64,000 bases of DNA, from NCBI GenBank assembly GCA_963777605.1, contig CAVZRV010000010.1, forward strand, positions 128,001 to 192,000, written 5' to 3'. The translations under genes and the position numbers were made by a program. Each line of letters starts with the position of its first letter. Within the stretch, counting starts at the first letter, position 1. This document shows positions 12,278 to 50,208 of the stretch, one piece after another. The notes beneath the pieces were generated by a model that saw nothing but the letters and a program-made list of their open reading frames with translations, made no database searches and was not told the DNA's origin. Source of the DNA: an uncultured Acidobacteriota bacterium. Its GTDB lineage: Bacteria > Acidobacteriota > UBA6911 > RPQK01 > JAPXNP01.

Positions 12278-13552
12278 TTAAACGGTACTGGGGTCCACGA
12301 CCCGGCCCATGAAGAGCATCGCGCCGGTGGCCCGGTCATAGATTACGAAGAGGAACGGGCGATCGATTCGAATCGTTGGAGGCATCGAAGTGACCCCCAT
12401 CGTGATTCCGGTGGCGGCAGCCGCCTCGGTGCCCCGCTCATTCACATCGATATAAGCTCCTTGAAAAACCCTTTGTATAAAGAGATCGGCCTGGTCCGAG
12501 ATTCCCGAAAAATCGGCCCGTTCAGGATTGAACGCCAGCGCCATTCCCATTTGCTTCAGAGCCCCGGACAACTCCAGGTCACTCTTGATCCTGAATCGCG
12601 GCATGCTGAGTTCGATATACGTCGATTCCAACCTGCTGAGGCGCTCCCGAAACCAATCCGAGGATATCGTCCGGCTCATCTCCGGGAAGTCCTCCATGCG
12701 CGAGGGGAGAAAGACCGCCATCGCAATCCTCTCGCCACGATAAGGAAGGTCCACGACCGTCCCATCTTCTGACGATTCAACCCGGTAAGCTCCGGTCCGC
12801 CGCATGAAAGGCACCTGAACGGTGTCGCCGCCGAGCCTGAGAAAATCACCCGGACGGGTGGCCCTTTCGTCAAAGGGATCCTTCCAGGTGCCCAGGAAAT
12901 AGATGGCATTGGTCAAAACCAGGCGGGTGTCCCGATTCAGGCTACCTGGAGGCAACAGTGGGTCGATCTTTCCTCCTGTCCGTTCTGCTGTCCAACGGTT
13001 GATCTGGTTCCTCGCATCGTCGAACTCCGAGGCAAAATCGAGCGGGTTCAAATCGGCATCGAACTCGCGCTTCAGGAGAGAAACGAAGTCGACCTTCAAC
13101 TGGAGCCCCTCCTGGACCCAGAGGGCATTCGCAATCTCGAGAGCAATATCTCCTGACTCCGAGGCTTGTCCCAGGGAGTCGAACAGGTTGTGGACAGCGC
13201 CGGCGATCACTTCAGAATCCGCGGCCTGCTCCTTCTCCTCGCCAGGTGCCAGAACCGAGGTCATTTCCGCCCTGGTTTTCCCATCCGCTCCGGCAGCGGT
13301 CATTGCGAGCGCGGCGTACACGCTGAAGGGCGAGCTGACGCTATCTTTATCGGTAGTTCCGGTGCGCTGAAAGAGTTCGATTGCAAACCGGTTCACGGCG
13401 TCACCGATGTTCAAAGCTGGTGGTTTTCCAGCCGGGTCCTGGCCGGTTGTACCCGGTCCCGGTGTCAGGGCGGCGCCGACCTCCGGTCGCTGACACCCCA
13501 ACATAAGGATGCTTATCAGAATCAGGGAGAGTGGATTATATAATTCGATCAC
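12278..13552 (-). CDS. Serpin (serine protease inhibitor), probable lipoprotein
   Basis: SPFSV, INRWTAERTGGKI, LVLTNAIYFLGTW, VNERGTEAAAAT hinge, DRPFLFVI, FMGRVVDP; MLGC lipobox-like. Confidence 0.93.
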   Translation of the reverse strand: MIELYNPLSLILISILMLGCQRPEVGAALTPGPGTTGQDPAGKPPALNIGDAVNRFAIELFQRTGTTDKDSVSSPFSVYAALAMTAAGADGKTRAEMTSVLAPGEEKEQAADSEVIAGAVHNLFDSLGQASESGDIALEIANALWVQEGLQLKVDFVSLLKREFDADLNPLDFASEFDDARNQINRWTAERTGGKIDPLLPPGSLNRDTRLVLTNAIYFLGTWKDPFDERATRPGDFLRLGGDTVQVPFMRRTGAYRVESSEDGTVVDLPYRGERIAMAVFLPSRMEDFPEMSRTISSDWFRERLSRLESTYIELSMPRFRIKSDLELSGALKQMGMALAFNPERADFSGISDQADLFIQRVFQGAYIDVNERGTEAAAATGITMGVTSMPPTIRIDRPFLFVIYDRATGAMLFMGRVVDPSTV

Positions 13553-13897: not shown

Positions 13898-16800
13898 ATG
13901 CCCAATTTCACAACGCCCGGCTTCCCGGTACCGTCCCGCTCCCGACACCGCATTCTGATGTGCGCGTCGATTGTTTTTGCCGCCCTCGTTGCAACGGCCG
14001 CGCTTGCCGGAAACGCGACGCAGGTCAGCGTCGAGGTCGGCCAAATCACCGTCCCGACTTACACGTTCGGTGAGGCTCCGAACACCGCACCGCTGTTTGA
14101 AGTCGGGAATGGCAAAGGGATCTATCCTTACGGGCCACTCGATCGCGACAGCTTGAGTGCCAGCCCGCAGCCGATAAGCTACCAGTCGATCACGATCGAG
14201 AACGATTACCTCCGGGTCGTGTTTCTACCCGAACTGGGCGGGCGAATCTGGTCCGCGTGGGACAAGCAGACCCAACGCAACCTGTTCTATACCGACTCCG
14301 TCATCAAGCCGAGCGCCTACAACCAGAGGGGTGGATGGCCCGTTGGGAACCTCGAGGTCTACGGGCCGTTCGATGCCCACATGCTGACCTGGCCTGGCGA
14401 GCCATGGCCCTGGACGATCCAGCACCATTCGGACGGGAGTGCCACCGTGATCCTGTCCCATATCGACCATTTCTTCCGGGACAAACTGTTCATGGAGGTC
14501 ACGCTTCGTCCTGGTCGTTCGTTTGTCGAGCTCACCCTTCGCCTCCACAATCGGAACCAGCTTCCAAACCGGTATCTTCTCTGGACCAACGCCGGGATTC
14601 CAGCCACTGAGGGCACCCGCTTTGTTTATCCAATGACCCGCACGATCGGGCACGACACGGAAGACTTCGGTTCCTGGCCGGTATACCGCGGGGTCGATCT
14701 CAGCTGGTACCGCAACAACAAGACTATGCTGGGTGTCTTCGGGTTGGACGTCTATGATGACTTCCTTGCCGCCTACGACTACACTGCCGACCACGGTACG
14801 GTCTGCGCCAAGAACCACCAGATTGCACGAGGAATCAAGACCTGGACGTGGGGAACCGGACAGACCGGAATGCGCCACCTGGAAAGCTATGCCGATTCCG
14901 GTCTGCCCTACATCGAAGTCCAGAGCGGTCGTTTCGTCTGGGACGGCAACTACGAGTTCATTGCACCTGGCGAAAGCGACGGATGGACCGAGTACTGGTA
15001 TGGGGCCAGCGGCCTCGGAGGGCTGACCACGGCTACCCCAGACCTGGCCGTCCGCCTGGCGACCGGTCCAGACGGCGTCGAAGCCGTCCTGTTGCCAACC
15101 GGGGACTTCTCCGATGCGTCGTTCTCCTGGGCTCCCGACGGGAGGCCAGAGTATGCCACCGAGCCGATCAACCTCCGGGCCGGCCAGCCTCTTCGAAAAC
15201 TGGTCCCCGTTGAGACATCCGGGCAAGTCAAGAGCATCCGGGTGCGAGTTACTTCAGGTGACGCGACCCTGCTCGACTATCGCTTCAACCTGGACGGCGA
15301 ACCTCCGAAGGGCGAATTTGCAGCCGATGCCATCCCGCGGGATTTTGGTCCCTCCGACTCCCTGACGCTCGAAGAACTATACCTGAAGGGGCTCACCGAG
15401 GAGAAACTCGGCCGCGCAGACCGTGCCGAGGCGGCGTACCGGGAAGCTCTCCAGCGGGATCCATTGTATGTTGCGCCCAACCTCCGCCTTGGATTGATAG
15501 CCCTGTCCCGGTTCCAGGAAGAAGAGGCTCTCAAGTTCTTCAACCAGGCCCTCGATCGGGCCCCTTCCGACAGCGAACTCCACTACCTGATCGGAGTCAC
15601 CCTGACCCGAATGGGCCGGGACGAAGACGCCCGCGAACACTTTTACCGAGTGATCCCTTCGGCAGCCCAGTTCGATCAGCGCGACTTCAACCTGGGACTG
15701 ATCGCCCTCCGAAAGGGTGACGTCGGCCAGGCCCTGGGCCTCCTCCAGACCGCTGCCAAGCGGCTGCCGGAACAGTCATCGGCCCAACAGGCGTATGCCT
15801 TTTCCCTTCGAAGAGAGGACCGCCGCACTGAAGCTGAGCCGGTCATCGCCCGCCTGGTGTCAGCAGATCCAACAAGTGCATTTGCGGCCGCAGAACTGGG
15901 CTTTTGGGACTCCTGGCCCGAGGCCCGGGTCGAGGCCCTGGATCAGGTGCTGGCAAGCCATCCGCAGGGTTACCTCGAACTCGCCACCGAATACATGAAA
16001 CTTGGTGCCTGGAAAGAAGTCCAATTCCTGGCCGACCTGGCAATTCGGGCTGCCTCCCGTAATGGAGGGTCCCCCTACCCGATCCTGCTCTATTATCGGG
16101 CCGACGCACTCGATCACCTTGGAGAGACCGACCAAGCCAGGGCGCTGCTGGCTGACGCCTCCAGGACTGACGTGAAGATCAGTTTTTTCCCGTTCCGTCG
16201 GGAGACCGTCTCGGTACTGGAGGCTTGCCTCGAACTCCTCCCCCGCGATTCAAACGCGGCCTCCTTACTGGGCGACCTCTACTACTCGCGGCAGCGGCAC
16301 GACGAGGCGATCAAATTGTGGGAGGCCGCCGCCGATTGGAATCCGGCCCACTTCTCCTCACTTCGGAACCTGGGCTGGGCATTCCTTGCCCGCGGAGATT
16401 CGGAACGCGCCGTGGGATTCCTGGAACGTGCACTCCAGGTCCGGCCCGACCACCTCGAGACCGCCACAAGCCTCACCCAGCTTTACGCACGGCTGGGCAA
16501 AACCGACCAGGCGCTTGCCGTGATTGAGCAGTTGAACATCCGCAACCCGAAGAACGACCAGGTTGTCGAACTCACGGCCCGGATTCGTGCCCTGGCCGGT
16601 GACGTCAACGGATCTCTTTCTCTGCTGAACGATCACCAGTTTGGCATCCGTCATCAGTCCTATTCCCTGCTTCATCTCTACCAGAGCGTACAGCTTCTCA
16701 AGTCAGTTGAGGAATTCCGGAAAGGGGCGATCCAGGAGGCCCTCCTTCACGTCGATGCCGCCGCCCACGTTCCCGCCAACCTGGGGGTTGACGACTTCGC

Positions 16801-17221
16801 TGCATTGAAGAGCAGCCGGCTGCTTGCCTTCCGGGCGCTTCTGCTCGAGGCGTCCGGGGACCGAGACCGGTCATTGGAGGCCTGGAATGCCGCCGCCGAA
16901 ACGGTGGACCAGGACTTCGACGGCGAAGGACTTTTCCGAGCCATTGCCCTCGCTCACATCGGCAAGCGGGAAAGTGCGGCCCGGTGGTTTACTGAATTCG
17001 AGCAGGTCAATCCGACAAGGCAGAAGGACAACGACGCCGCCGTTCGCATCCACGCTACTTACCTCGCGGGCATCTACGCAATCTACCGCGGGGAATCCCG
17101 GAAAGGCCTTGAGGGCTTCAATCGAGCCCTCGACGGTGACGCATCCGATATGATGGTGAGACATGCAATAGCTGCCTTTGACGCCGGGATCCTTTCCGGA
17201 CTGCCGCTTCCCACGCGCTAG
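13898..17221 (+). CDS. DUF5107-like domain plus TPR-repeat protein
   Basis: IENDYLRVVFLPELGGRIWSAWDK, LLWTNAG, IKTWTWG, YIEVQSG; C-terminal two-thirds is TPR helices. Confidence 0.82.
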   Translation: MPNFTTPGFPVPSRSRHRILMCASIVFAALVATAALAGNATQVSVEVGQITVPTYTFGEAPNTAPLFEVGNGKGIYPYGPLDRDSLSASPQPISYQSITIENDYLRVVFLPELGGRIWSAWDKQTQRNLFYTDSVIKPSAYNQRGGWPVGNLEVYGPFDAHMLTWPGEPWPWTIQHHSDGSATVILSHIDHFFRDKLFMEVTLRPGRSFVELTLRLHNRNQLPNRYLLWTNAGIPATEGTRFVYPMTRTIGHDTEDFGSWPVYRGVDLSWYRNNKTMLGVFGLDVYDDFLAAYDYTADHGTVCAKNHQIARGIKTWTWGTGQTGMRHLESYADSGLPYIEVQSGRFVWDGNYEFIAPGESDGWTEYWYGASGLGGLTTATPDLAVRLATGPDGVEAVLLPTGDFSDASFSWAPDGRPEYATEPINLRAGQPLRKLVPVETSGQVKSIRVRVTSGDATLLDYRFNLDGEPPKGEFAADAIPRDFGPSDSLTLEELYLKGLTEEKLGRADRAEAAYREALQRDPLYVAPNLRLGLIALSRFQEEEALKFFNQALDRAPSDSELHYLIGVTLTRMGRDEDAREHFYRVIPSAAQFDQRDFNLGLIALRKGDVGQALGLLQTAAKRLPEQSSAQQAYAFSLRREDRRTEAEPVIARLVSADPTSAFAAAELGFWDSWPEARVEALDQVLASHPQGYLELATEYMKLGAWKEVQFLADLAIRAASRNGGSPYPILLYYRADALDHLGETDQARALLADASRTDVKISFFPFRRETVSVLEACLELLPRDSNAASLLGDLYYSRQRHDEAIKLWEAAADWNPAHFSSLRNLGWAFLARGDSERAVGFLERALQVRPDHLETATSLTQLYARLGKTDQALAVIEQLNIRNPKNDQVVELTARIRALAGDVNGSLSLLNDHQFGIRHQSYSLLHLYQSVQLLKSVEEFRKGAIQEALLHVDAAAHVPANLGVDDFAALKSSRLLAFRALLLEASGDRDRSLEAWNAAAETVDQDFDGEGLFRAIALAHIGKRESAARWFTEFEQVNPTRQKDNDAAVRIHATYLAGIYAIYRGESRKGLEGFNRALDGDASDMMVRHAIAAFDAGILSGLPLPTR

Positions 17222-17434: not shown

Positions 17435-17554
17435 TAACACGGCAGCACTTTAGATTTTCGTCAATGAAATGACTGGGGACTACCTGTGGCGTTAGGTGGC
17501 TGTTGCCTTTCCTGTGGCAGTCTCCAAACGGACACAGTTGCTTATGAGGAGTTT

Positions 17555-18445
17555 GTGATAAGAAGCTCAGCCGGGCGGCAGTTCAACCTCTTTGGAGTCT
17601 GCCTTTCAATCATCATAGCCGGCTACGTGACAGGACTCCTGGCTGTCGCCTATCGAGGCTATGACTACTACTTGACCCCGCTCAACGATCGGGCTTTTCA
17701 CCAGGGGCACTCCGAACTGAAACCGTCCGGAAAAATCGGGCATCGGCTTGGAACGGTCGGCGGAATCCTGATGCTGCTGACTTTTGCCTACTCGATCCGA
17801 AAGCGTTCATCTCTCCTGCAGCGAATTGGCACCCAGAAGCAATGGCTCCAGGTCCACATCTGCTTCGGACTCGGAGGTCCAATCCTGGTGGTCTTTCACA
17901 CCACCGGGAAACTCGGCGGCCTGGCGGCAATCGGTTTCTACTCGACCCTTGCCATGGTCGTCTCCGGCATCTTCGGGCGCTACCTCTACTCCAAGATTCC
18001 ACGCACGCGCAAGGGAAACGAGATGTCCCTGATCCAGATCGAACAGGAGTTTGCCGACCTGGTAAGCCGACTGGGCGGAGATCACGGAGGGAACGAACTC
18101 CTCGATGCCGTCGAATCATACCTGTCACAGGTCAGGAAACGCTCCCTTGGCCTCGGACAGGCCCTGGCCGTGGCACTCTGGGACGATCTCAAGAGTCCGC
18201 TTCGGGTTATCCAGGCGTGGAACATCGCCGCTCACCAACACGCCACGTTTAGGATCCAGTTCAGGACAACCCGACTCATCCTGAAACAGAGACGATTGCT
18301 GAAGAAATTGACGGTGATCGAGGCAAGCCAGCGCCTTTTCTCCTACTGGCACATCTTCCACCGACCTTTTACGATCCTCGCATCGGTACTCATCAGCGTT
18401 CACGTCGCGGTGGCCACTTACTTCGGGTACGGAGTCGGCTTGTGA
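17555..18445 (+). CDS. Inner-membrane di-heme cytochrome b (ferric-reductase-like transmembrane domain)
   Basis: About 5-6 hydrophobic helices; two H-x13-H pairs (VHICFGLGGPILVVFH, FHRPFTILASVLISVH); GAGGAG RBS before the GTG at 17555. Confidence 0.75.
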   Translation: MIRSSAGRQFNLFGVCLSIIIAGYVTGLLAVAYRGYDYYLTPLNDRAFHQGHSELKPSGKIGHRLGTVGGILMLLTFAYSIRKRSSLLQRIGTQKQWLQVHICFGLGGPILVVFHTTGKLGGLAAIGFYSTLAMVVSGIFGRYLYSKIPRTRKGNEMSLIQIEQEFADLVSRLGGDHGGNELLDAVESYLSQVRKRSLGLGQALAVALWDDLKSPLRVIQAWNIAAHQHATFRIQFRTTRLILKQRRLLKKLTVIEASQRLFSYWHIFHRPFTILASVLISVHVAVATYFGYGVGL

Positions 18446-20310
18446 TCATTGCCCGGCTCTTTCCTGCCCTGTTGATTCTCTCAACCGGGCCTCTCGCCGC
18501 CCAAGGCCTCGAGTCTCTGGTTTCCCCCGGCACGTTGAGCCGGGCCCACGCAAACCTCTCTGGACTCGACAACTGCCAGCGCTGTCACACTCCCGGTGAA
18601 GGAGTCACCTCGAGCAAGTGCCTTTCCTGCCACACCGAGATTGCCGAGCGAATTCGTGAAGGGCGAGGTCTCCACCGAGAGGAACATTCCGACAACTGTC
18701 AAAGCTGCCATCCTGAACACCGGGGTGAAGAAGCCCAGATGACTCCATGGGATCCGACCAGCTTCGATCACGCCGAGACCGGCTATCGGCTGGAAGGCTT
18801 TCACTCCGAGGTGAAGGCATGCGATCAGTGCCACACGCCAGAACGATCACAGAAACGAGAAACGACCAAGTCCTTTCTGCTCCGATCGGACTCCTGTACG
18901 ACCTGTCACAACGACGCCCACAAAGGGGTGCTTGGACCGGGTTGCGAGCGCTGCCACAGCGTCAAACGGCACTTCAAGTCGGTCGACTTCGACCACTCAC
19001 GGGCCGCCTTCCCGCTCAGAGGCGCCCACGCTAAGGTGGCCTGCTCCCGCTGTCACGTGGACAGCCGCTGGAAAGGAATCGCCTTCTCGCAATGCCTCGA
19101 TTGCCACGCCAACCGACATCGTCCATCGCTGGGCAGCGACTGCACTCAATGCCACACGGTCAGCTCCTGGAAGATTGCGGATGCCTCAACAAGGTTTCAC
19201 CAGGCCGGCTCCGCCTTTCCCCTGCGAGGCGGACACGCAGAGGTGGCCTGCTCCAAGTGCCACCTCAACGGCCAGTTCAAAGGCATCGCCTTTCAGGAGT
19301 GCCGGAACTGTCACACCAGCAGCCCTCACCAGGGGCAGTTCAGTCAAGATTGCAAATCGTGCCATACCGAAGACAACTTCACGAAGACGACGTTTCGGCA
19401 CGAATCGGCTCGGTTTCGCCTCAACGGGAAGCACCTGGGAGTCGCATGCAGCAAGTGCCATCCTAGGGAGAAGGTCGAATTCGCCGAGAAGACGGTTGCG
19501 TTCACCCGCTATCGCCCACTTTCGACCGAATGCCGTGCCTGTCACGATGACATCCACCTTGGGCAGTTCAGCCAACCCTGCGCCAAATGCCATTCGACCG
19601 GAGGCTTCGGCTTGAGCCAGATCTCCTTCTCGCACAACACCGACTCCGACTTTGTTCTCAAGGGAAGTCACATCGGCCTCGTATGCGGGCGCTGCCACAA
19701 ATCGGAGAGGGGTACGTTTCCTGCCGGGTTTGGACAGGCGGTCCGGTTTCTCCCCATCTCTCCTACCTGTGAGACCTGTCACCCAGACCAGCATGGGGGG
19801 CAACTGGGCGATCAATGCGCATCCTGTCACACGGTTGAACACTTCAAACCGGCATCGGGGTTCAACCATCGAATGGCGCGCTTTCAACTCACCGGCAAGC
19901 ACCAGGATCTCCCCTGCGCCGACTGTCACCCGAGAGTAAAGCGTGTGCCGTCCTCGGGAGAAACCTTGATGCGGACCCTCTACCGGCCCTTGCGCAAAGA
20001 GTGCAGCAGCTGTCACAAGGATCCTCATCGCCGGGCGGACCAAGCCTCATGTGACGAGTGCCATACCTCGAAAACCTTCGAGGTTAGAAACTTCAACCAT
20101 TTTGAGACGTCGTTCGCGCTGATGGGACGACACGCCAGCCTGGCCTGCGAGCGCTGTCACACCCAGACGAACTGGAACGGCAAAGTGGTGCTTACCTTCG
20201 CCCACGTTCGCCGTGAATGCCAGGATTGCCACAAATCCCCCCATCGGTCTCGTTACGGCGAGTGTGGTCGCTGTCATGTCACGACAACCTGGGTGATCAG
20301 TGATTTTTAG
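18442..20310 (+). CDS. Exported 24-heme cytochrome c (8 tri-heme modules)
   Basis: Sec signal peptide; 24 CxxCH motifs counted; recurring FxH...FxLxGxH...CxxCH units; GTGA overlap with the upstream gene. Confidence 0.95.
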   Translation: MIIARLFPALLILSTGPLAAQGLESLVSPGTLSRAHANLSGLDNCQRCHTPGEGVTSSKCLSCHTEIAERIREGRGLHREEHSDNCQSCHPEHRGEEAQMTPWDPTSFDHAETGYRLEGFHSEVKACDQCHTPERSQKRETTKSFLLRSDSCTTCHNDAHKGVLGPGCERCHSVKRHFKSVDFDHSRAAFPLRGAHAKVACSRCHVDSRWKGIAFSQCLDCHANRHRPSLGSDCTQCHTVSSWKIADASTRFHQAGSAFPLRGGHAEVACSKCHLNGQFKGIAFQECRNCHTSSPHQGQFSQDCKSCHTEDNFTKTTFRHESARFRLNGKHLGVACSKCHPREKVEFAEKTVAFTRYRPLSTECRACHDDIHLGQFSQPCAKCHSTGGFGLSQISFSHNTDSDFVLKGSHIGLVCGRCHKSERGTFPAGFGQAVRFLPISPTCETCHPDQHGGQLGDQCASCHTVEHFKPASGFNHRMARFQLTGKHQDLPCADCHPRVKRVPSSGETLMRTLYRPLRKECSSCHKDPHRRADQASCDECHTSKTFEVRNFNHFETSFALMGRHASLACERCHTQTNWNGKVVLTFAHVRRECQDCHKSPHRSRYGECGRCHVTTTWVISDF

Positions 20311-20313
20311 AGC

Positions 20314-22032
20314 ATGCATGAGGAGAATCCATTGAACCGCAATTTGATTCGCTTTGCCGGACAGGCCCGGGTTCGCCTCTCGGGCGTGATTCTTGGACTT
20401 CTCGGGCTGCTGGCCTGCCCTCTTCTGGCCGCCGAAACCAGGCCCAAGTCGCCAGCTATCTCAGGAGTCGTGAAGGATCCCTCCGGATTCCTCATCCCCG
20501 GCTGCTCCGTCTCGCTAGTCACAACCGAGCTCCAACAGCTGAACCAGACGCTGACCAGCGACCTTGGACAATTCACCTTTGAAAACGTTCAGCCGGGTAG
20601 CTACGTTGTCGATGTCCAAGCAGCGGGATTCAAGGACCGGCGTGTCGAAAATGTCCTCCTGACCTCAGACCAGGCAGTCAAGCTCGAGATTGTCCTTGAA
20701 CTGGCGAGCCGGACCGACCAGGCGGAAGTGGTCGCCCAACGGGAAGAGGCGGGAGAGGAGACCAAGCTCAAGCTGATCGACCATCCCCTCGATCCCCCTG
20801 AATTCATGCGGCAGGAACTTCCTCGTCAGCCGTTACTGAAGCGGGGTCGCCTTTACTCCGACTGGTTCGGGATTCGGACCGGCGATCGATTTGTGAACCA
20901 ACTCAGCAACCGTGCCAAGATGGAGTTCGGAGAACCCGGCCTGGGCTGGAACGCCCGTTTCGATTTTCGCGATCGGGTCACCCTCGGGGGCAGCACATCC
21001 CACATCCTGAGCGTTTACGATGCCCGCCTGGTCTATGACAATGTTCGGCATCCGCTCTATGCATCCGTCGGCCAGATGAACCTTTACGATACGGCCGGCA
21101 TCGGGGAACTCCTGGGGGGCCTCTTCGGAGTGAGACCAACCACCCGGCTCCTGGTTGGGGGCTACGGGGGACTTAAACCCGACCTTTACCGAACCCAGGT
21201 AGACCCGGCATTCAGAAAGTACGGCCTCTTCGCTCGCTACGTCGGCCCCAAGGCCCAGAGTTTCTCGATCAGCTACAATCAGTTGCGATACTCGGGGAAC
21301 ACCGAACGGAGTTATCTCTATTTCAACGGACTGACCAACGTCGGTGACCGGGCGGTCCTCTACGGGAACGCCGAGTTCGAACTCGGGTCCCACATCCGGT
21401 CCTCGGACCGCCTTTCGCGCTTGTTTCTGAACGGTCGCTTCGACCTGAGCCGGCGGTTCGACCTGATCGCGAACTACAGCAGCGGAAAAGGCCTCGACTT
21501 TCACCGGTTTCTCCTGGAGCGGGCTCAGGATCCTTTGGGCAACCAGAACGAACTGGAGCGCTTCTATTACAACTCCCAGTACGGCATCCGCCTCCGCTAT
21601 CGCCTGTCCGACAACTGGCGTGTGTTCTTCGGTCAACGGATGAGCGAGCGGAAGGATATCTCGATCCAGAACCGGACCACTCAGCTCGGAGTCACGGCTT
21701 CGCGGATTCGCGATCTCGGACTATCTCTCTATGCCAACTACAACATCAACCGGGGCGATGCCTCGGAGTCCGATTCGTTCTACCTTTCGATCTCAAAGAC
21801 ACTCGGGAAACATTCTTGGAGCACGAGTTACTCGACATCGTTTAACGGCCTGCGATTCAACAGTGCGGCTGGCGTTCCCGAGGTGGTCCACCTGGCGTCG
21901 CGAAGCACGCTTTTCAACGAACTCTTCTTCGTTATCAACCGGACTCTTGCCCTTTCATTCCAGCACGAACACACATTTGGTCTGATCCAGGGGGAGGACC
22001 TCTTCTTCGTCCGTTTCATTTTGAGGATGTAG
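20314..22032 (+). CDS. Outer-membrane beta-barrel (porin) with an N-terminal carboxypeptidase-regulatory-like domain
   Basis: Signal peptide; ISGVVKDPSG...GQFTFENVQPGSYVVDVQAAGF; ~400-aa amphipathic Tyr/Phe/Gly-rich beta strands ending FFVRFILRM. Confidence 0.78.
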   Translation: MHEENPLNRNLIRFAGQARVRLSGVILGLLGLLACPLLAAETRPKSPAISGVVKDPSGFLIPGCSVSLVTTELQQLNQTLTSDLGQFTFENVQPGSYVVDVQAAGFKDRRVENVLLTSDQAVKLEIVLELASRTDQAEVVAQREEAGEETKLKLIDHPLDPPEFMRQELPRQPLLKRGRLYSDWFGIRTGDRFVNQLSNRAKMEFGEPGLGWNARFDFRDRVTLGGSTSHILSVYDARLVYDNVRHPLYASVGQMNLYDTAGIGELLGGLFGVRPTTRLLVGGYGGLKPDLYRTQVDPAFRKYGLFARYVGPKAQSFSISYNQLRYSGNTERSYLYFNGLTNVGDRAVLYGNAEFELGSHIRSSDRLSRLFLNGRFDLSRRFDLIANYSSGKGLDFHRFLLERAQDPLGNQNELERFYYNSQYGIRLRYRLSDNWRVFFGQRMSERKDISIQNRTTQLGVTASRIRDLGLSLYANYNINRGDASESDSFYLSISKTLGKHSWSTSYSTSFNGLRFNSAAGVPEVVHLASRSTLFNELFFVINRTLALSFQHEHTFGLIQGEDLFFVRFILRM

Positions 22033-22040
22033 GTGTCTCG

Positions 22041-23495
22041 ATGAACTACCTCGTTTGGTTTGGAATATTCCTGGTACTCGCCATTCTCGCCACCGTTCCG
22101 GTGCACTTTCACCTTTCCTCCATGAGTAAGAAGGAGTCCGGATCGGACCGCGGGCCCGGAAGCGGAGTTAAACTTCGGGATTGCCCGGGCTGCGGCAGCC
22201 CGACGCCGGTCGATGCGGCGTTTTGCGACAAGTGCGGCGTTCCGATGATGCTCTGGTCGTTGAAGCAAGCTCGGGAGGTCCAGGGAGAGCAGCAGAACCA
22301 GGGAAAAGCGGTACCCATCATCGATCAAGATGTCTGCATCGGATGCAGTGCCTGTGTCAACGCCTGCGATGAAGCCGTGCTGGAAATCGTGGCCGGTAAG
22401 TCCGCCGTCACCAATGTGAGTGCCTGCACCAGTGCCGGGACCTGTGTCGAAGTCTGCCCGACCGGCGCTTGCCAGCTTGGGGGCGGCGGTGCCGCCCGTC
22501 GAGTCGAGGTGCCGCAGATCGACGGGGACTTCCAGACCAACCAGGCCGGTGTCTATGCCGTCGGCGAACTCGGTGGCCTGGGACTAATCAAAAGCGCAAT
22601 CGCGGAAGGCCAAATGGTAATCGAGCGGATCGCCCCCAACCATGAACCGCGAGAGGGGGTGCTCGACCTGGTGATCGTCGGATCGGGACCTGCGGGACTG
22701 TCGGCGGCCCTGGCGGCCAAAACCAAGGGCCTGTCGGCCATCATCCTTGAGCAGGGGAACCTCGCCAACACCATCCGGAAGTACCCCAATCGGAAGATCG
22801 TCATGGCGGAACCGATCAAGATCCCCATGTACGGCTCGCTCTGGATCTCGGACGCACCCAAGGAAACTCTCCTCGGAGTCTGGCAGACCATCATCGACTC
22901 ATCCGGGATCGCCGTGAACGAAAACGAGAAAGTCCTTTCCATCCAGCGCCAGGACGATGGAACCTTCGTCACTGGAACGCCCAAAGGCACATACCACAGC
23001 CAGAAGGTCATTCTCGCCATCGGGAAGCGCGGAACTCCCAATGAACTCCCGGCGCCCGGAGCCGGGTTGCCTAAGGTCCTTTACACCCTGACCGACACGG
23101 CCCAATACCGTGACAGCAGGATCCTTGTCGTCGGCGGGGGAGACTCGGCGGCCGAGGCAGCGATTACGCTGGCTCGCCAGCCCGGCAACGAGGTGGTCAT
23201 GTCCTACCGGCGCGCTGAGTTCACTCGCCTGAAGCCCAAGAACCTGGAGGGAATCGAGTCAAGCACTGCATCCGGAGAAGTTCGCCTGCTGCTCGGAAGC
23301 CAGGTTACAGAGGTGACCCCGTCCACCGTCTCAGTTCTGCTTTCGTCCGGAGAAGTTCAGACCATTGAGAACGATTACGTGTTCGCTTTTCTGGGCGGAA
23401 CCTCGCCGAAGAGCTTCCTGGCAGAGATCGGTGTCGAGATGGTGACCAAGGAAGTCGCAATGGAGCTTCAGAAAGGGCATCATGAAGCGGTTTAG
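22041..23495 (+). CDS. Membrane-anchored zinc-ribbon / ferredoxin / TrxR-fold FAD-NADP(H) oxidoreductase
   Basis: N-terminal TM helix; CPGC..CDKC; CIGCSACVNAC and CTSAGTCVEVCP; GSGPAG (FAD); GGGDSA plus YRR (NADP); no redox CxxC. Confidence 0.88.
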   Translation: MNYLVWFGIFLVLAILATVPVHFHLSSMSKKESGSDRGPGSGVKLRDCPGCGSPTPVDAAFCDKCGVPMMLWSLKQAREVQGEQQNQGKAVPIIDQDVCIGCSACVNACDEAVLEIVAGKSAVTNVSACTSAGTCVEVCPTGACQLGGGGAARRVEVPQIDGDFQTNQAGVYAVGELGGLGLIKSAIAEGQMVIERIAPNHEPREGVLDLVIVGSGPAGLSAALAAKTKGLSAIILEQGNLANTIRKYPNRKIVMAEPIKIPMYGSLWISDAPKETLLGVWQTIIDSSGIAVNENEKVLSIQRQDDGTFVTGTPKGTYHSQKVILAIGKRGTPNELPAPGAGLPKVLYTLTDTAQYRDSRILVVGGGDSAAEAAITLARQPGNEVVMSYRRAEFTRLKPKNLEGIESSTASGEVRLLLGSQVTEVTPSTVSVLLSSGEVQTIENDYVFAFLGGTSPKSFLAEIGVEMVTKEVAMELQKGHHEAV

Positions 23496-26400
23496 ACCTT
23501 CCCAGTGGGCCGTCCTTCTGGTACTTCCGGTGCTTCTCTGCTCGGTGGTTCCAGCCCAGGAGGGTTCGCGGGGCCGGGTTTTCGAGCACGACAAAACGAA
23601 CTTTCCGCTCACCGGCCGGCACCGGACAATAGCTTGCGCCGAGTGCCACCTCGGCGGGCAACTTGAAGGCACTCCGGTCGCGTGCGAAGCCTGCCACTGG
23701 GACCGCCGCCAGGACGACCGTTACAACCTCCAGCTTGGAATCAACTGCGCCGAGTGTCACACCACGGAAGGCTGGAAGGCGGTTTCAGCAGACGCCTGGA
23801 ACCACGAGGCACGCACCGGGTTCCGCCTCGAGGGCTATCACCGGTCAATCGAGTGCACCGACTGTCACACAGACGGATTCGAGGGACTCTCCCCTGATTG
23901 CATTTCCTGTCATCAAGGCGACTTTGAGCGGGCAGAGAGCCCCAATCACGTCGCCCTGGCCTTCCCGAATGACTGCGTGCTCTGTCACACCAGCCAGACC
24001 AGTTGGGGCGGCGCAGTTTTCAATCACGCGAATTTCCCCTTGCGCGGGCAGCACCAGACGGTGGCCTGCGTGACTTGTCACAAAGACGGCGTCTTTGAGG
24101 GCTTGGCCTCGGAGTGCATTGCCTGTCACCGTCCCGATTTCGAGTCCACAACCGACCCGAACCATGTCACCGCTGGCTTCCCCACCGATTGCGTCAATTG
24201 CCACGGAGATTCGGCAACCAGCTGGGACAACGCCGACTTCGATCACTCCAGCTTTCCCCTCCGCGGCAAGCACGAGACCGCATTGTGCAGTTCCTGCCAC
24301 GCCGATGGTGTCTTCGCCGGCCTTGCCTCGGACTGCATCTCGTGTCACCGATCGGAATTCGAATCAACAACCGATCCGAACCATGTCGCCGCCGGATTCT
24401 CCAACGATTGCGCCTCCTGCCATGGCGGCCAGGCAACCGCCTGGGACGGCGCAACCTTCGAGCATGACAACTGGCCACTGCGCGGCCAGCACCAGGCCAC
24501 CGCCTGCGCCACCTGCCACAAGGACGGGGTGTTTGCAGGCCTGGCCTCGGAGTGTATCTCTTGTCACCGTCCCGAGTTTGAAGCGACGACCGATCCCAAC
24601 CACGTCACCGCGGGCTTTCCCACGGATTGCGTCACCTGCCACGGAGATTCGGCAACCAGTTGGGACAATGCCGACTTTAATCACGACACATTCCCTCTGC
24701 GCGGCAAGCATGAGACCGCATTGTGCAGTTCCTGCCACAAGGATGGTGTCTTCGCCGGGCTGGCCTCGGACTGCATCTCGTGTCACCGATCGGAATTCGA
24801 ATCAACAACCGATCCGAACCATGTGGCGGCCGGATTCTCCAACGACTGCGTCTCCTGTCATGGCGACCAGGCAACCGCCTGGGACGGCGCAACCTTCGAG
24901 CATGACAACTGGCCACTGCGGGGCCAGCACCAGACCACGGCGGCCTGCGCCACCTGCCACAAGAACGGCGTCTTTGCGGGTCTCGCCTCCGATTGTGTCT
25001 CCTGCCACCGGTCCGAGTTCGATTCCACGACGGACCCGAACCACGTCACTGCGGGATTCCCCACGGATTGCGTGACCTGCCACGGGACTCCGCCACCCGG
25101 TGGGACAAGGCCACCTTCGATCACGACTCCTGGCCTTTGAAAGGACAGCACCAGACGGTGGCCTGCGCCACCTGTCACAAGAACGGCGTCTTTGCGGGTC
25201 TCGCCTCCGATTGTGTCTCCTGCCACCGGTCCGAGTTCGATTCCGCGACGGACCCGAACCAGTCAGTTGCTGGATTCCCCACGGATTGCGTGACCTGCCA
25301 TGGAGACTCCGCCACCACCTGGGACAAGGCCACCTTCGACCACGACTCCTGGCCTTTGAAAGGACAGCACCAGACGGTGGCCTGCGCCACCTGTCACAAG
25401 AACGGCGTCTTTGCGGGTCTCGCCTCCGATTGTGTCTCCTGCCACCGGTCCGAGTTCGATTCCGCGACGGACCCGAACCACGTCGTTGCTGGATTCCCCA
25501 CGGATTGCGTGACCTGCCACGGAGACTCCGCCACCACCTGGGACAATGCCACCTTCGACCACGACTCCTGGCCTTTGAAAGGACAGCACCAGACGGTGGC
25601 CTGCGCCACCTGTCACAAGAACGGCGTCTTTGCGGGTCTCGCCTCCGATTGTGTCTCCTGCCACCGGTCCGATTTCGATTCCGCGACGGACCCGAACCAC
25701 GTCACTGCGGGATTCCCTACGGATTGCGTGACCTGCCATGGTGACTCCGCCACCCGGTGGGACGGGGCCACCTTCGATCATGACTCCTGGCCTTTGAAGG
25801 GACAGCACCAGACGGTGGCCTGCGCCACCTGTCACAAGGATGGAGTCTTCGCCGGACTGGCCTCGGAGTGCGTTTCCTGCCACCGATCCGATTTCGATTC
25901 TGCGACGGACCCGAACCACGTCACTGCTGGATTCCCCACGGATTGCGTGACCTGCCATGGTGATTCCGCCACCCGCTGGGACAGGGCCACCTTTGATCAT
26001 GACTCCTGGCCTTTGAAGGGACAGCACCAGACGGTGGCCTGCGCCACCTGTCACAAGAACGGCGTCTTTGCGGGACTCGCCTCCGACTGTGTCTCCTGCC
26101 ACCGATCCGAGTTCGATTCCGCGACGGACCCCAACCACGTCAGTGCGGGATTCCCCACGGATTGCGTGACCTGCCATGGTGATTCGGCAACCCGGTGGGA
26201 CGGGGCCACCTTTGATCATGACTCCTGGCCTTTGAAGGGACAGCATCAGACGGTGGCCTGCGCCACCTGTCACAAGGATGGAGTCTTCGCCGGACTGGCA
26301 TCGGAGTGCGTTTCCTGCCACCGATCCGAGTTCGATTCTGCGACGGACCCGAACCACGTCATGCGGGATTTCCTACGGATTGCGTGACCTGCCATGGTGA

Positions 26401-26848
26401 TTCGGCAACCCGGTGGGACGGGGCCACCTTTGACCATTCGGTTTGGCCCCTGCAGGGCGCACACCGGACCCTCAGTTGCCAGACTTGTCACAGCGCTGGA
26501 TACAACCTGCCTCGAGACTGCTACGGCTGTCATGCCGCCGATTACAACTCGACACAAAGTCCCAATCATTCGGCCTCGGGATTCCCGACAACGTGTGACT
26601 CCTGCCACTTCCCCGAACATGTCTACTGGAACCAGGCCGTTTTTCAGCATGACTTCCCGATCACTTCTGGGGCCCACAGGAATGTTGAGTGCCAGGAATG
26701 TCACCTCACCGCCAACTTCCTCGAATTCAGCTGCATCGACTGCCATGAGCACGCAAAAAATGAAACCGATCGACACCACCGAGAGGTCGGCGGCTACGTT
26801 TACAACAGCCAGGCGTGCTATTCCTGCCACCCCAATGGGCGCGAGTAA
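23482..26848 (+). CDS. Giant exported multiheme cytochrome c, 45 CxxCH motifs, ~1122 aa after repairing two single-base deletions (~25086, ~26361)
   Basis: Three overlapping ORFs carry 21+17+7 CxxCH motifs; neighbouring repeats show the missing bases (cacgg[a]gactcc and gtca[c]tgcggga); signal peptide ...VVPA|Q. Confidence 0.9.
24019..26428 (+). repeat. Eleven tandem 219-bp (73-aa) coding repeats, each a tri-heme module
   Basis: Unit consensus FDHDSWPLKGQHQTVACATCHKNGVFAGLASDCVSCHRSEFDSATDPNHVTAGFPTDCVTCHGDSATRWDGAT; shadow ORFs recur at 219- and 438-bp offsets. Confidence 0.95.
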
Positions 26849-26859
26849 AGGAAACAACT

Positions 26860-27711
26860 ATGAGAAATACAGCTCTGATTTTGGTTGCGTTACTTGTCCT
26901 AACCACCTGGACTGCTTGCAACTCCCAGGCCGATCTGGTGACTGCAGAAACAGGCGCAACAGGAATCCAGGTGGTTGCGGCTCACACCGCGGACACTACG
27001 CAGGCGCCACAGCCCGCATCTACTTCAATGCCGCCTGAAACGGAAGATCTTCCCAAGAGCGAGGGCCAGGATCAGTTGATCCGTGGAACGGTCACCGAGG
27101 TGATCGAAGCGAGCCAGTACGTCTACGTCTGCGTAAATTCCGGAAGCGAATCTCGATGGGTCGCCACCAACTCGCTCGACGTAAAATCTGGAGACTCCGT
27201 GGAGTTCGAGCAGGGCCTCCTGATGAGAAACTTCAAGAGCCCCTCAATGGGCAGGGTCTTTCCGGCGATCCTCTTTGTTCAGGGTCTGCAGGTCACCAGT
27301 CGCCCGACTGTCCAGGTCACAGCAGTGAAAGGACTCCCCTCCGGGCACCCCTCCGTCCCCAAGAGCGCGCGTACCGCGGCCCGGGAGGTAGCCCGTCCCA
27401 ACCCGGGTTCGATTCCCCGGCTGAAGGATACGCTGACAATTGAGGCAATCCAGAAAGATCAGGAGGCTCTCAACGGAAAGGCGGTGTCGGTGGTCGGAAT
27501 GGTCACGAAAGTCAGCGCCAACATCATGGATCGTAACTGGATTCACCTGGTTGATGAAGACGGGCGCGAGCTGGTGGTCACCTCCAGCGCTACCGCTGTT
27601 CCCGGCTCCATCCAGGTCGCCCGGGGAACTCTCGTTGTCGGCAAGGCTTTTGAAACCGGGTACTACGTTCCACTTCTCCTCGAGAATTCAACGTTGGATT
27701 CCGCTTCCTGA
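26860..27711 (+). CDS. NrfJ-like / tandem OB-fold lipoprotein with an LPSGHP motif
   Basis: WTAC lipobox-like; GTVTEVIEASQYVYV...LMRNFKSPSMGRVFPAILFV; GLPSGHP linker; GKAVSVVGMVTKVSANIMDRNWIHL second domain. Confidence 0.65.
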   Translation: MRNTALILVALLVLTTWTACNSQADLVTAETGATGIQVVAAHTADTTQAPQPASTSMPPETEDLPKSEGQDQLIRGTVTEVIEASQYVYVCVNSGSESRWVATNSLDVKSGDSVEFEQGLLMRNFKSPSMGRVFPAILFVQGLQVTSRPTVQVTAVKGLPSGHPSVPKSARTAAREVARPNPGSIPRLKDTLTIEAIQKDQEALNGKAVSVVGMVTKVSANIMDRNWIHLVDEDGRELVVTSSATAVPGSIQVARGTLVVGKAFETGYYVPLLLENSTLDSAS

Positions 27712-28034
27712 GTCCGCTGCGGATACAGGCTCCCCCCAGAAGCGATTCGGGGACGGCGCTTGCGGGATCAGGATTGGTGAACAGGGAACAAGCCGCGATC
27801 TACTCACCCAACCCGATCATCATGGGCGAGATTCCTCGCCATTCCATCGTCAGCGCGGTCCTCGACCACACGGCCCACCATCGGGGAGCCCTTACGGTTT
27901 ACCAGCGATTACCCGGCCTCACACCCCTGATACCCCTACATGGAAATGCGAGTTCGCACATTAGCACGGAGAATCCGGCCCATGCCAATCTTTCCTGGCT
28001 TGTCCGGAAAAGCGCAATTCGGTAGTATCCATTG

Positions 28035-29405
28035 ATGTCTCGCCGGTTTCGTTCCGTCCTTTGGGCGCTGATGGTCCTCGGGTTCGGCCCCGCCCCGGTT
28101 GCTCGAGCCCAGGTCGCCAAAGCAGGCGAGAACCCCCCAAATGTCATCCTGCTGGTCCTCGACGCGACTCGCCTCGACCACCTCTCGACTTATGGCTGCC
28201 CCCTCAAAATTACCCCCAGGATTGATGAAATTGCCGCCCGTTCAACCGTGTACGAGCAATGCATAGCGGCGGCTCCATGGACGCTGCCTTCCGTTGCCTC
28301 CCTGATGACCGGACTCTTTCCCCACAGACATGGAGTGAATTGCCAGAACCTGAACCTGCGGGACACCTACACGACCCTGGCCGAGAGACTCCGCGATTCT
28401 GGATATCGGACCGCCGGCTATTCAGGAAACCCCTGGATTGGCTCGTTCTCGGGAATGGCCCAGGGTTTCGAAATCTTTGAGGATATCTGGCGGGAACTGG
28501 GAGACGATCCAGTTGACGCTGGTGCCACAGAAGCGAATCGGCGCGCACTTCAGTGGATTGATTCCCTTCCCGGCGAAGACCCGTTCTTCCTTTACATCCA
28601 CTACATGGAACCCCACTTTCCCTACCGGCCTCCTCGCCCCTTCGATCGCGCGTTTGAATCGCAGCCACTGGATGATGCCGTCCTGGAGCGGGTCCGGAGT
28701 TGGAAAACTCCACGGGAACTCGGATACATCCTCAAAGATCCCAGCAGCCTGATTTCTCCGGAGGAAATGCGTGCTCTTCAGGTCGAATACAAAGGCGAGG
28801 TAGGCTACCTCGATATGCAGATTGGCGCACTGATCGACGCCCTCACCAGCCGTGGCCTGCTCGATAGGAGCCTGCTCGTCATTACGGCCGACCACGGCGA
28901 ACACCTGGGCGATCACCAACTGCTCGATCACAAGTTCTCCGTCTATGAGAACCTGATTCGAGTTCCTCTGATCATCCGCTATCCTGACGGCCACCTGGTG
29001 GGAACCCGGGTGAAACGGCAAGTGCAGAACATCGACCTGGTCCCGACGGTCATGCGCTACACAGGACACGCGGATGTTCCCTGCGACGGAACCGTGCTCC
29101 CTCGACAGGATGACTCGGAGACCCCTGTCCGCATAGCGTTCACGGAGTTTTCCCGGCCCCTCCTGTTCACCGACGTCATCGAGGAGCATTTCCCGATGGC
29201 GGACTATTCCTTCATCGACCGGGCTCTTCTTTCCCTGCGAACCGACCGTTACAAGTTGATCTGGGCGTCCGACGGAAAGAACCAACTCTACGACCTGGCC
29301 AACGATCCGGGAGAGCAGGAGAATTTGATCGGCAGACAGCCTTCAATCGCGAAAGACCTGCTGGAGAGGGCCCGGAAGTTCCAGGAAAAAGGCTCCGGGC
29401 ACTAG
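28035..29405 (+). CDS. Exported sulfatase-family (alkaline phosphatase superfamily) hydrolase
   Basis: PNVILLVLDATRLDHL, APWTLPS, YMEPHFPY, ITADHGE, LYDLANDPGE. Confidence 0.88.
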   Translation: MSRRFRSVLWALMVLGFGPAPVARAQVAKAGENPPNVILLVLDATRLDHLSTYGCPLKITPRIDEIAARSTVYEQCIAAAPWTLPSVASLMTGLFPHRHGVNCQNLNLRDTYTTLAERLRDSGYRTAGYSGNPWIGSFSGMAQGFEIFEDIWRELGDDPVDAGATEANRRALQWIDSLPGEDPFFLYIHYMEPHFPYRPPRPFDRAFESQPLDDAVLERVRSWKTPRELGYILKDPSSLISPEEMRALQVEYKGEVGYLDMQIGALIDALTSRGLLDRSLLVITADHGEHLGDHQLLDHKFSVYENLIRVPLIIRYPDGHLVGTRVKRQVQNIDLVPTVMRYTGHADVPCDGTVLPRQDDSETPVRIAFTEFSRPLLFTDVIEEHFPMADYSFIDRALLSLRTDRYKLIWASDGKNQLYDLANDPGEQENLIGRQPSIAKDLLERARKFQEKGSGH

Positions 29406-48370: not shown

Positions 48371-49789
48371 GTGTCAGGTGAGACGACCAATAGCCTCTTT
48401 CGACGCCTTCCGTCAATCGGCAAGCTAATCAACCAGGACGAATTTCGCGTTCTGGCGGAGGATTACTCGCGGGAACTCGTGATCCAGGCGACCACTGCCC
48501 TGCTCGACGAACTTCGCAGCCGGCTCTCCAGCGGCCAGTTGACGGCAACCGAGCTCGATCGGCGCCTTGGGGACCTTTGTGACCGGGTCCGGAGGAAACT
48601 CGAGTCCTCCCTTTCGCCATCGCTGCGACCGGTGGTCAACGCAACCGGGGTCGTTGTCTTTACCAATGCCGGGCGGGCACCGATTGCCGAGCAGGCCCTC
48701 AAGGATCTCGTCCTGACAGCGGGACGCTATTCGAACCTCGAGTACGACCTCGCCAACGGGACGCGTGGCCACCGGGACATTCACTTCGAATCCCGGGTGG
48801 TGCGCCTGCTCGGGTGCGAAGCGGCAACGGTCTGCAACAACGCTGCGGCAGCGCTCCTCCTCATCCTCAATGCTCTGGCGACGGGCAAGAAGGTCCTCGT
48901 TTCGAGGGGAGAGTTGATCGAGATCGGCGGGTCATTCCGGCTGCCGGCAATCATGGAGAAGAGCGGGGCCATCCTGAAGGAGGTCGGAACCACCAACAAG
49001 ACCAAGGCGCGGGATTACGCCGATGCGATCGACGACGACACCGCATTGATTCTCCGGGTGCACCCGTCCAACTATCAAATCGTCGGGTTCACGGTCCGCC
49101 CCCGGCTCGACGAACTAGTCGAAGTAGCGCGCTCCCGCGGCATCCCGCTCGTGCACGATGCCGGAAGCGGGTACCTGTTTCGGACCGGCCTTCCCGCACT
49201 TGAGCAGGAGCCGGTCATTTCGGAATCGCTGGCAGCCGGCTCGGACCTCATCTGCTTCAGCGGTGACAAGCTGCTGGGCGGTCCCCAGGCCGGGCTCATC
49301 CTGGGACGAAAATCCCTCGTCGGCCAGATCCGAAAGAACCCCCTGATGCGGGCGATGCGGGTGGACAAACTGATTTACTCCGCCCTCGAACTGACGCTCA
49401 AGGAATACGAACTCGGCCGTTTTCAGGACACGCTCCCGGTGTGGCGGTTTCTTTCACTTCCGGTCGAAGTCATTCGAAGACGAGCCGAAGCACTCGTCGA
49501 AGGAATCTCCTCCCGACACTTGGCGGCGGAACTCTGCGAGGGGTTCTCCCTGACCGGTGGAGGATCGGCTCCCGAAGAGCGGATCCCCACCTGCCTGATC
49601 GCCCTCCGTTCCTCAGCTTTCAGTGCCAACGAACTGGAGCTTCACCTGCGCCGGTTCCGGACTCCGATCCTGGCCCGAATCGAAGACGACCGGGTCCTGA
49701 TCGATCTCCGAACCGTCTTTCCCGAGCAGGAGGAACTCATCGTCGAGGCCCTTCTCGAAATCGGCTCGGGCCCGGGGAATTCAGCTTGA
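48371..49789 (+). CDS. selA: L-seryl-tRNA(Sec) selenium transferase
   Basis: VVNATGVVVFTNAGRA, SNLEYDL, SRGELIEIGGSFR, EVGTTN, FSGDKLLGGPQAG. Confidence 0.95.
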   Translation: MSGETTNSLFRRLPSIGKLINQDEFRVLAEDYSRELVIQATTALLDELRSRLSSGQLTATELDRRLGDLCDRVRRKLESSLSPSLRPVVNATGVVVFTNAGRAPIAEQALKDLVLTAGRYSNLEYDLANGTRGHRDIHFESRVVRLLGCEAATVCNNAAAALLLILNALATGKKVLVSRGELIEIGGSFRLPAIMEKSGAILKEVGTTNKTKARDYADAIDDDTALILRVHPSNYQIVGFTVRPRLDELVEVARSRGIPLVHDAGSGYLFRTGLPALEQEPVISESLAAGSDLICFSGDKLLGGPQAGLILGRKSLVGQIRKNPLMRAMRVDKLIYSALELTLKEYELGRFQDTLPVWRFLSLPVEVIRRRAEALVEGISSRHLAAELCEGFSLTGGGSAPEERIPTCLIALRSSAFSANELELHLRRFRTPILARIEDDRVLIDLRTVFPEQEELIVEALLEIGSGPGNSA

Positions 49790-50120: not shown

Positions 50121-50208
50121 GCCGGAGTGGCGGAATTGGCAGACGCGCTGCGTTCAGGGCGCAGTGGGGCATAGCCCCGTGGGGGTTCGAGTCCCCCCTC
50201 CGGCACCA
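50121..50208 (+). tRNA. tRNA-Leu(CAG)
   Basis: GCCGGAG/CTCCGGC acceptor stem, anticodon arm CTGCG-TTCAGGG-CGCAG, long variable arm, GTTCGAGTC T-loop, encoded CCA. Confidence 0.96.

Follow-up and report, generated by a model that had tools for sequence, protein, structure and literature searches.

Introduction

The closest described counterparts of the locus analyzed here are PCC3 clusters. He 2017 (PMC5566968) reported PCC3 cytochromes of up to 85 hemes with internal repeats, put forward a wire hypothesis for them, and defined the inner-membrane proteins (IMPs) of PCC3 and PCC4, which have ~300 amino acids (aa) and five transmembrane helices, by two WX3HX13H motifs and SGXXG; the IMP was proposed there to be quinone-active. 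PCC3 cytochromes were later modelled as long and mostly linear (Hoover 2023, PMC9900912), and Edwards 2020 (PMC7096707) suggested that the large PCC3 cytochrome exits via the porin, with ~27 hemes given as sufficient to span the periplasm. As for motif number, Soares 2024 (PMC11492766) cites a record of 113, and a 2026 peat preprint (10.64898/2026.05.27.727921) reports proteins with up to 116 motifs; the four Acidobacteriota/Verrucomicrobiota clusters it describes have 8-13-heme cytochromes, unlike the cluster below. Here we analyze a 64,000-nucleotide stretch of DNA from an uncultured Acidobacteriota bacterium (the window, G000:C10:128001-192000; the source assembly, labelled G000, comprises 6.7 Mb in 53 contigs), and in particular a giant multiheme cytochrome gene with 45 CxxCH motifs, which lies in a six-gene operon of PCC3-like plan and whose product would be the distal arm of an electron conduit to the cell exterior.

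The giant cytochrome gene

Gene calling splits the gene into three pieces, with no in-frame stop inside any of them. Its features, including the sites at which the reading frame is disturbed, are:

23482..26848, plus strand: giant multiheme cytochrome gene (~1122 aa if both missing bases are errors), with a signal, 15 tri-heme modules and a C-terminal cap
24022..26431, plus strand: eleven 219-nucleotide (nt) units, pairwise identity 66-98%, late units 83-98%
25084..25086, plus strand: break 1, in GGG, one base short relative to neighboring copies, at a column where copies differ
26361..26362, plus strand: break 2, just after 26361, one base short relative to neighboring copies, at a column where copies differ
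25257..25270, plus strand: compensating -1/+1 pair in module 8 (the unit starting at 25119), which turns the conserved PNH into PNQ (25257-25265)

Three-frame translation of 23482-26848 gives 45 CxxCH motifs spanning 23635-26816: 21 are read from the ATG at 23482, 17 in the second frame (25164-26307) and 7 in the third (26381-26816). The motifs are spaced in a cycle of 48/75/96 nt, or 16/25/32 aa, which makes a unit of 219 nt or 73 aa (Tandem Repeats Finder also gives a period of 219); only two spacings, of 95 and 74 nt, are off frame, each in a unit that is one base short, and with the two bases restored the gene has 1122 codons. Our recount thus reproduces the 45 CxxCH motifs, 15 tri-heme modules and ~1122 aa that had been claimed, after two base restorations, in the original prediction, a first reading made from the sequence alone. 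The summed mass is ~118 kDa for the apoprotein and ~146 kDa with 45 hemes (24.3 aa and 2.6 kDa per heme), which agrees with the heme-stained band of 145-150 kDa anticipated in that reading. A, T, S and G make up 35% of the protein, and a Sec-type signal, judged by eye, occupies approximately residues 1-25.

Within the repeat, units 4 and 6 are 92% identical, the mark of a two-unit duplication, and the unit near 24928 carries an in-frame 3-nt insertion; modules 1, 2, 14 and 15, at the ends of the array, diverge from the 73-aa consensus and are not copies of it. The Pfam family Cytochrome_C7 (PF14522) matches at 89.8, 88.3 and 27.7 bits against a gathering cut-off of 24.8, scores that are summed over repeats and belong to a broad family carrying little fold information. 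A promoter and terminator scan returned counts no higher than those of shuffled sequence, and the sole match of an Rfam scan was a tRNA distant from the locus.

Module family and heme ligation

Long homologues were taken from a search restricted to proteins of 938-2675 aa, in which 1640 of 8000 scored candidates matched and the best 120 were used, a sample that favors long proteins. These 120 have a median of 66.5 and a maximum of 108 CxxCH motifs; 115 carry at least 45, and 104 end in the conserved C-terminal cap. An unbiased profile search added 147 new representatives spanning 10-79 CxxCH motifs, with a mode of 22. The module is matched at E up to 1e-30 by 1780 clusters (50% identity) and, within the phylum, occurs in 33 of the 301 genomes, the source genome among them; source labels of the homologues include Acidobacteriota, Bacteroidota, Gemmatimonadota, Eisenbacteria, Ignavibacteria, Calditrichota and Aminicenantes. 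The 45-heme gene is a middle-sized member of this large family and unremarkable by itself: the exceptional status accorded to it earlier does not stand, as 45 lies below the median of the best long homologues and the single-chain giant-wire idea was already published. A record heme count is excluded by the homologues with up to 108 motifs.

Conservation bears directly on heme ligation. Across its three pieces the giant protein has 91 His, 45 within CxxCH and 46 spare, and the mature protein contains no Met. In an alignment of 86 three-module segments, all nine CxxCH motifs are invariant. Conservation is complete or reaches at least 90% at the His of the FDH, GxH and PNH types, at one Trp and in the FPL motif; the first FDH column, at the ragged edge of the alignment, is unlisted. 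Three extra His per 73-aa module had been noted at the outset, and among the 120 homologues 2267 of 2269 canonical modules retain at least a pair of His in one linker plus a third in a different linker; bis-His ligation of every heme of the giant cytochrome is therefore well supported as a prediction from sequence.

Our literature search found no paper describing this module or the flavoprotein-containing six-gene cluster, and the portions consulted of Garber 2024 (PMC11475568), PMC13013709 and 10.1101/2025.05.29.656830 held nothing specific to either. With 1780 clusters, 33 carriers among the phylum's 301 genomes and no solved structure, the family is an important one, and a small, concatenable, all-bis-His module would serve as a length-defined heme wire for distance-dependent conduction measurements.

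Predicted structure and wire length

Single-sequence AlphaFold prediction of four modules was unusable, with a predicted local distance difference test (pLDDT) score of 45.8. Alignment-based prediction of three modules reached a pLDDT of 78.6 and a predicted template-modeling score (pTM) of 0.50; the resulting heme-free model, which contains short helices only, is confident about the local repeat and uncertain about how modules are arranged relative to one another. Searches of the PDB with phmmer and profiles gave only weak, CxxCH-driven matches, the best being HmcA at E=2e-10. Published estimates of 630 Å for an 86-heme PCC3 member (PMC7096707) and 350 Å for a 27-heme wire cytochrome (PMC11492766) would put the length of a 45-heme chain at ~33 nm, at 7.3 Å per heme (630 Å/86), and at up to 58 nm at 13 Å per heme (350 Å/27). 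Of the rod built by intragenic repetition that had been proposed, the repetition is borne out; its rod shape and heme spacing are still to be read as predictions.

The operon and a proposed conduit

The giant gene is the fifth of six tightly packed same-strand genes, in the order IMP, 24-heme cytochrome, probable barrel, iron-sulfur (Fe-S)/flavin adenine dinucleotide (FAD) flavoprotein, giant cytochrome and probable lipoprotein; the remaining operon genes are intact in the source assembly. The original prediction had overlooked this operon, which gives the giant protein its likely role. The other members are:

17486..18445, plus strand: IMP of 319 aa, a predicted di-heme b protein with two WX3HX13H motifs and SGXXG
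18442..20310, plus strand: 24-heme cytochrome with related tri-heme modules and a signal peptide judged by eye, the predicted periplasm-spanning arm
20314..22032, plus strand: CarboxypepD_reg domain and a ~420-aa probable outer-membrane beta-barrel with ~25 amphipathic segments
22041..23495, plus strand: Fe-S/FAD flavoprotein with a membrane anchor, a double zinc ribbon, a ferredoxin and a TrxR/YpdA-like FAD/NAD(P)H domain
26815..27711, plus strand: probable lipoprotein, likely start Met at 26860, matching at E=3e-22 a GW-domain protein that holds the same place in the Emticicia operon described below

In the IMP, SGIFG lies between the two WX3HX13H motifs; PF01794 matches weakly (E=4e-4, below cut-off), and a crude hydropathy scan shows three peaks. 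One IMP homologue, 65% identical, carries the source label Acidobacteriota; IMP-like matches occur on 35 plasmids, and none were found in viral contigs. The probable barrel has no Pfam or PDB match, its nearest named Atlas cluster being BBP2_2 (0.91). The membrane anchor of the flavoprotein is N-terminal, there is no CxxC after residue 150, and the 3' end of its gene overlaps the start of the giant gene.

We compared 36 loci chosen for the presence of a giant gene or an IMP, several of which end at contig edges. A giant gene is present in 35, a barrel in 31, a 24-heme type in 28, an IMP in 27, a flavoprotein in 21 and a GW-type protein in 3. Heme number stays within 20-24 for the 24-heme type in 23 of 27 loci and spans 9-85 for the giant type in 29 loci. 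This tally, made by hand, omits L091, L092 and L097 as apparent fusions, L093 with its 32 hemes, L095 as split and L017 as cut at an edge. The two cytochromes also occur joined: in 7 of the 120 long homologues a 24-heme N-terminus is followed in frame by the giant protein's special first module, and such fusions argue for a head-to-tail chain.

A complete cluster, with ccsA and with 23- and 40-heme genes, is carried by pEMTOL02 of the cultured Bacteroidota species Emticicia oligotrophica DSM 17448 (L075; NC_018749.1:78197-90781), the only plasmid record that matches the module; BLAST detected no similarity between its barrel candidate and that of the window. Location on a plasmid hints that the cluster can move between genomes, and an intact operon in a cultured strain makes a PCC3-type hypothesis testable. 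More distant plasmid clusters, in Methylophaga and Sphingobium (L106:10094-13448; L107:3998-7355), consist of three genes, for an FNR/2Fe-2S NAD(P)H/FAD reductase, for a homologue of the IMP and for a cytochrome with 7 hemes that is related to the N-terminus of the 24-heme protein; they sit among copper/heavy-metal genes, with no barrel annotated. Such minimal clusters likely represent the inner end of the chain and suggest NAD(P)H as its cytoplasmic partner.

We observed directly the anatomy of the sequence, the conservation of its His residues and of the operon, the fusions, the variation in length and the error rate of the assembly; from these we infer heme binding, rod shape, location, direction of electron flow and substrate of the giant cytochrome, as follows. 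The giant gene would be intact in the organism, its breaks being consensus errors. The protein would be Sec-exported and peptide-minimized (24 aa per heme), each 73-aa module binding three bis-His c-hemes, and the modules would stack into a long flexible heme chain of ~33-58 nm. On the cytoplasmic side, NAD(P)H would be the redox partner of the membrane-anchored Fe-S/FAD flavoprotein, and the di-heme-b IMP would pass electrons across the inner membrane. The 24-heme cytochrome would take them at its N-terminal end, span the periplasm and relay them to the giant cytochrome in a head-to-tail arrangement. The giant cytochrome would form the distal arm of a PCC3-like conduit, leading either through the beta-barrel or outward from it and ending at an acceptor or donor outside the cell. 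That the partner stays at 20-24 hemes while the giant type spans 9-85 fits a reach past a compartment of fixed width. For the whole chain, NAD(P)H - FAD/Fe-S - two b hemes - 24-heme arm - 45-heme arm - external partner, we judge the case to be evenly balanced. A bolder form, which we offer tentatively and regard as doubtful, is a quinone-independent NAD(P)H-to-outside wire in which the flavoprotein and a NOX/ferric-reductase-like di-heme-b protein feed a continuous chain of ~69 hemes (24+45, ~50 nm) threading the barrel, with an external reach of ~7-80 nm tuned as 219-bp modules of a structurally unsolved tri-heme fold are gained or lost; if true, such a wire would be a single polypeptide in some species and would be present in many phyla not known for electroactivity.

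Several observations weigh against the conduit. The flavoprotein is missing in 15 of the 36 loci (some cut by contig or locus ends), and the partner cytochrome has 6 hemes, not 20-24, in three loci. The three are L022, L027 and L104, with 18, 21 or 9 hemes in the giant type. The barrel assignment is probable and comes from sequence features, and neither a canonical lipobox nor a secretion domain was seen in the giant protein. Its shape and heme distances derive from a heme-free model of pTM 0.50, for which neither Foldseek (E up to 0.001) nor VIA-align (Z>=2 among 48,161 chains) gave a match, low-structure cytochromes modelled without heme being poor queries for fold searches. We found no functional test of any family member, and PCC3 function itself is still described as unverified in the part of 10.1101/2025.02.27.639646 that bears on it.

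These points leave room for other roles. The rival that survives best, although unlikely in our view, takes the protein to be intact and to stay inside the cell, as a periplasmic electron store (capacitor) or a lateral wire, as for GSU1996/GSU2210. It would suit the plain Sec-type signal without a lipobox and the distant IMP clusters without a barrel, and a capacitor role in the periplasm is ascribed to the single-chain cytochromes of Geobacter with 12 and 27 hemes (PMC10138318); yet 31 of the 36 loci pair the giant gene with a barrel gene, and an internal store does not readily accommodate a giant type that ranges over 9-85 hemes while its partner stays at ~20-24. Quite unlikely, we consider, is the same conduit coupled to the quinone pool (the PCC3 model) and/or carrying an inward flow from an external donor, with the flavoprotein as an accessory. 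The quinone activity proposed for the IMP by He 2017 (PMC5566968), the reported expression of PCC3 in Fe(II) oxidizers (10.1101/2025.02.27.639646) and the sighting of the flavoprotein in only 21 of 36 loci would all favor this arrangement, but the IMP resembles a ferric-reductase membrane domain, and even distant IMP homologues come directly after a differently folded NAD(P)H/FAD/Fe-S reductase.

Frame breaks in the giant gene

The conduit presupposes an intact gene. The original prediction had named two frameshifts; both single-base deletions are confirmed, and the indel sites number three, the pair that changes PNH to PNQ having been overlooked. We estimated the error rate of the source assembly by comparing with it the open reading frames (ORFs) from 40 stretches (800 kb) of G014, a genome of the same family. 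The source assembly showed 27 frame switches in 282 conserved genes (343 kb), i.e. a rate of ~1 per 13 kb of coding DNA, and the reverse test found 5 candidate frameshifts on the G014 side (290 genes, 341 kb). Since secY and rplO each carry a one-base indel in the source assembly's only match (G000:C10:324334-326378), this assembly must carry consensus errors. An ADOP permease is also spread over several frames in the source assembly (G000:C7:1095644-1098130), with one ADOP match above cut-off, which, like the IMP homologue labelled Acidobacteriota, points to this phylum as the origin of the DNA. In the giant gene, both deletions fall on variable columns, of which there are 34 among 219 (p ~0.024), and this is what mis-polishing among near-identical copies would give.

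Orthologues provide a second line of evidence. In G014 the orthologue is intact, with 36 hemes and 67% identity; that of G010 has 39 hemes and a +1 break at another position, and both stand in the same six-gene order. Breaks in the giant gene occur in 3 of 34 loci scanned (L016, L023 and L095), and those of L016 and L023, the two that were aligned, differ in place and one differs in sign. In G010 (L016:7703-10676), approximately seven successive modules are identical in protein sequence, which may reflect very recent expansion, homogenization or assembly smoothing.

A further rival holds that the deletions are real, the gene being in decay or yielding a truncated 21-heme product that lacks the conserved C-terminal cap. 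The genome rate predicts 0.26 shifts in a gene of this size (3.4 kb), with P(>=2) ~0.03; the shifts thus exceed the genome rate, and either errors are enriched within the repeat or the mutations are real. No public read or contig bridges either break: the runs listed are two from soil with small shares, whose contigs cover scattered 150-240-base pieces, and no RNA run holding the sequence is listed. Both the excess of indels and the lack of bridging reads favor real deletions. Against them stand the essential secY and rplO genes, broken alike in this assembly, the retention of all 45 motifs with no in-frame stop in any piece, an otherwise intact operon, and a cap that closes 104 of 120 homologues; on this evidence we regard real deletions as very unlikely. 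Programmed frameshifting or phase variation, which would give several wire lengths per gene and could be read into the breaks in the orthologues L016, L023 and L095, is hardly credible and was set aside, as the breaks vary in place and sign (-1, -1, +1, -1), no long homopolymer was seen at them and most orthologues are intact.

We are accordingly confident that the deletions in the giant gene are assembly errors, and the compensating pair at 25257..25270 is probably an error as well. The gene probably encodes one protein, in support of the single polypeptide first proposed, and heme counts taken from error-prone assemblies understate such proteins.

Other genes in the window and source genome

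The operon is flanked by genes for a DUF5107/TPR protein (13898-17221, plus strand) and a sulfatase (28032-29405, plus strand), neither with adjoining orthologues in loci L015-L034. The window also contains a bacterial serpin (12281-13552, minus strand; Pfam E=6e-106) and a SelA-family gene (48371-49786, plus strand), followed by a tRNA-Leu(CAG), not a tRNA-Sec, at 50121-50208 (plus strand). Across the source genome, 36 reading frames have at least three CxxCH motifs, and three Cytochrom_C_asm matches mark cytochrome c assembly genes. A separate multiheme cluster (L108, G000:C29 ~210700-232400) has two OmcA/MtrC-family genes and one DmsE-family decaheme gene above the NCBIfam cut-off, together with 19-, 11- and 5-heme ORFs.

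Comparison with known systems

The nearest likeness is to PCC3, with which this locus shares a four-part plan: an IMP with the defining motifs, a periplasmic cytochrome of 21-27 hemes (24 here, in a protein predicted to be periplasmic), a porin (here a probable beta-barrel), and a larger, variable, repeat-rich cytochrome. The larger cytochrome is rich in small residues, with 22-39 aa per heme in PCC3 (up to 85-86 hemes) against 24.3 here, and the PCC3 cytochromes have already been proposed to act as single-chain wires; the comparison covers motifs, layout and published descriptions. PCC3 belongs to Proteobacteria, whereas the present cluster is from Acidobacteriota and has relatives labelled Bacteroidota, Calditrichota, Gemmatimonadota, Aminicenantes and Eisenbacteria. 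It differs further in its Fe-S/FAD TrxR-like gene, which is unlisted in the consulted parts of the PCC3 descriptions, and in that both of its cytochromes share related tri-heme modules and are sometimes fused.

The c7-type 'nanowires of hemes' GSU1996 (12 hemes, PDB 3OV0) and GSU2210 (27 hemes) of Geobacter sulfurreducens are likewise single polypeptides of repeated tri-heme domains with a presumed linear heme chain. Each GSU1996 domain has one His-Met heme (PMC10138318), whereas the present module has another His order and spacing, no His-Met heme and a barrel/IMP operon. Membership in the c7 polymers was rejected: TIGR04257 scores 28.9 bits on the middle piece (other pieces unlisted) against a cut-off of 40, and no Met ligand is present. 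Comparison of the apo model with 3OV0 gave a Foldseek E of 7.7 and a TM of 0.15, in a heme-free model that is a weak test of the c7 fold. The family likeness to GSU1996 drawn at the outset is not supported by these scores; a similar way of working is possible, but the module falls outside the GSU1996/c7 family.

The Desulfuromonadia wires predicted with AlphaFold by Soares 2024 (PMC11492766) are also long, modular single chains with flexible linkers (27 hemes, 350 Å). Cluster 2 in that account differs in lying outside a porin operon and in its ~4.8 kDa per heme (130.7 kDa/27) against 2.6 here. OmcS, OmcE and OmcZ filaments polymerize from small subunits, whereas the giant cytochrome is one repeated chain, and MtrCAB relies on decaheme proteins, for which the source genome has separate MtrC- and DmsE/MtrA-type genes. 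A single-chain wire is thus a type of hypothesis already in print, and a reasonable one for the giant cytochrome.

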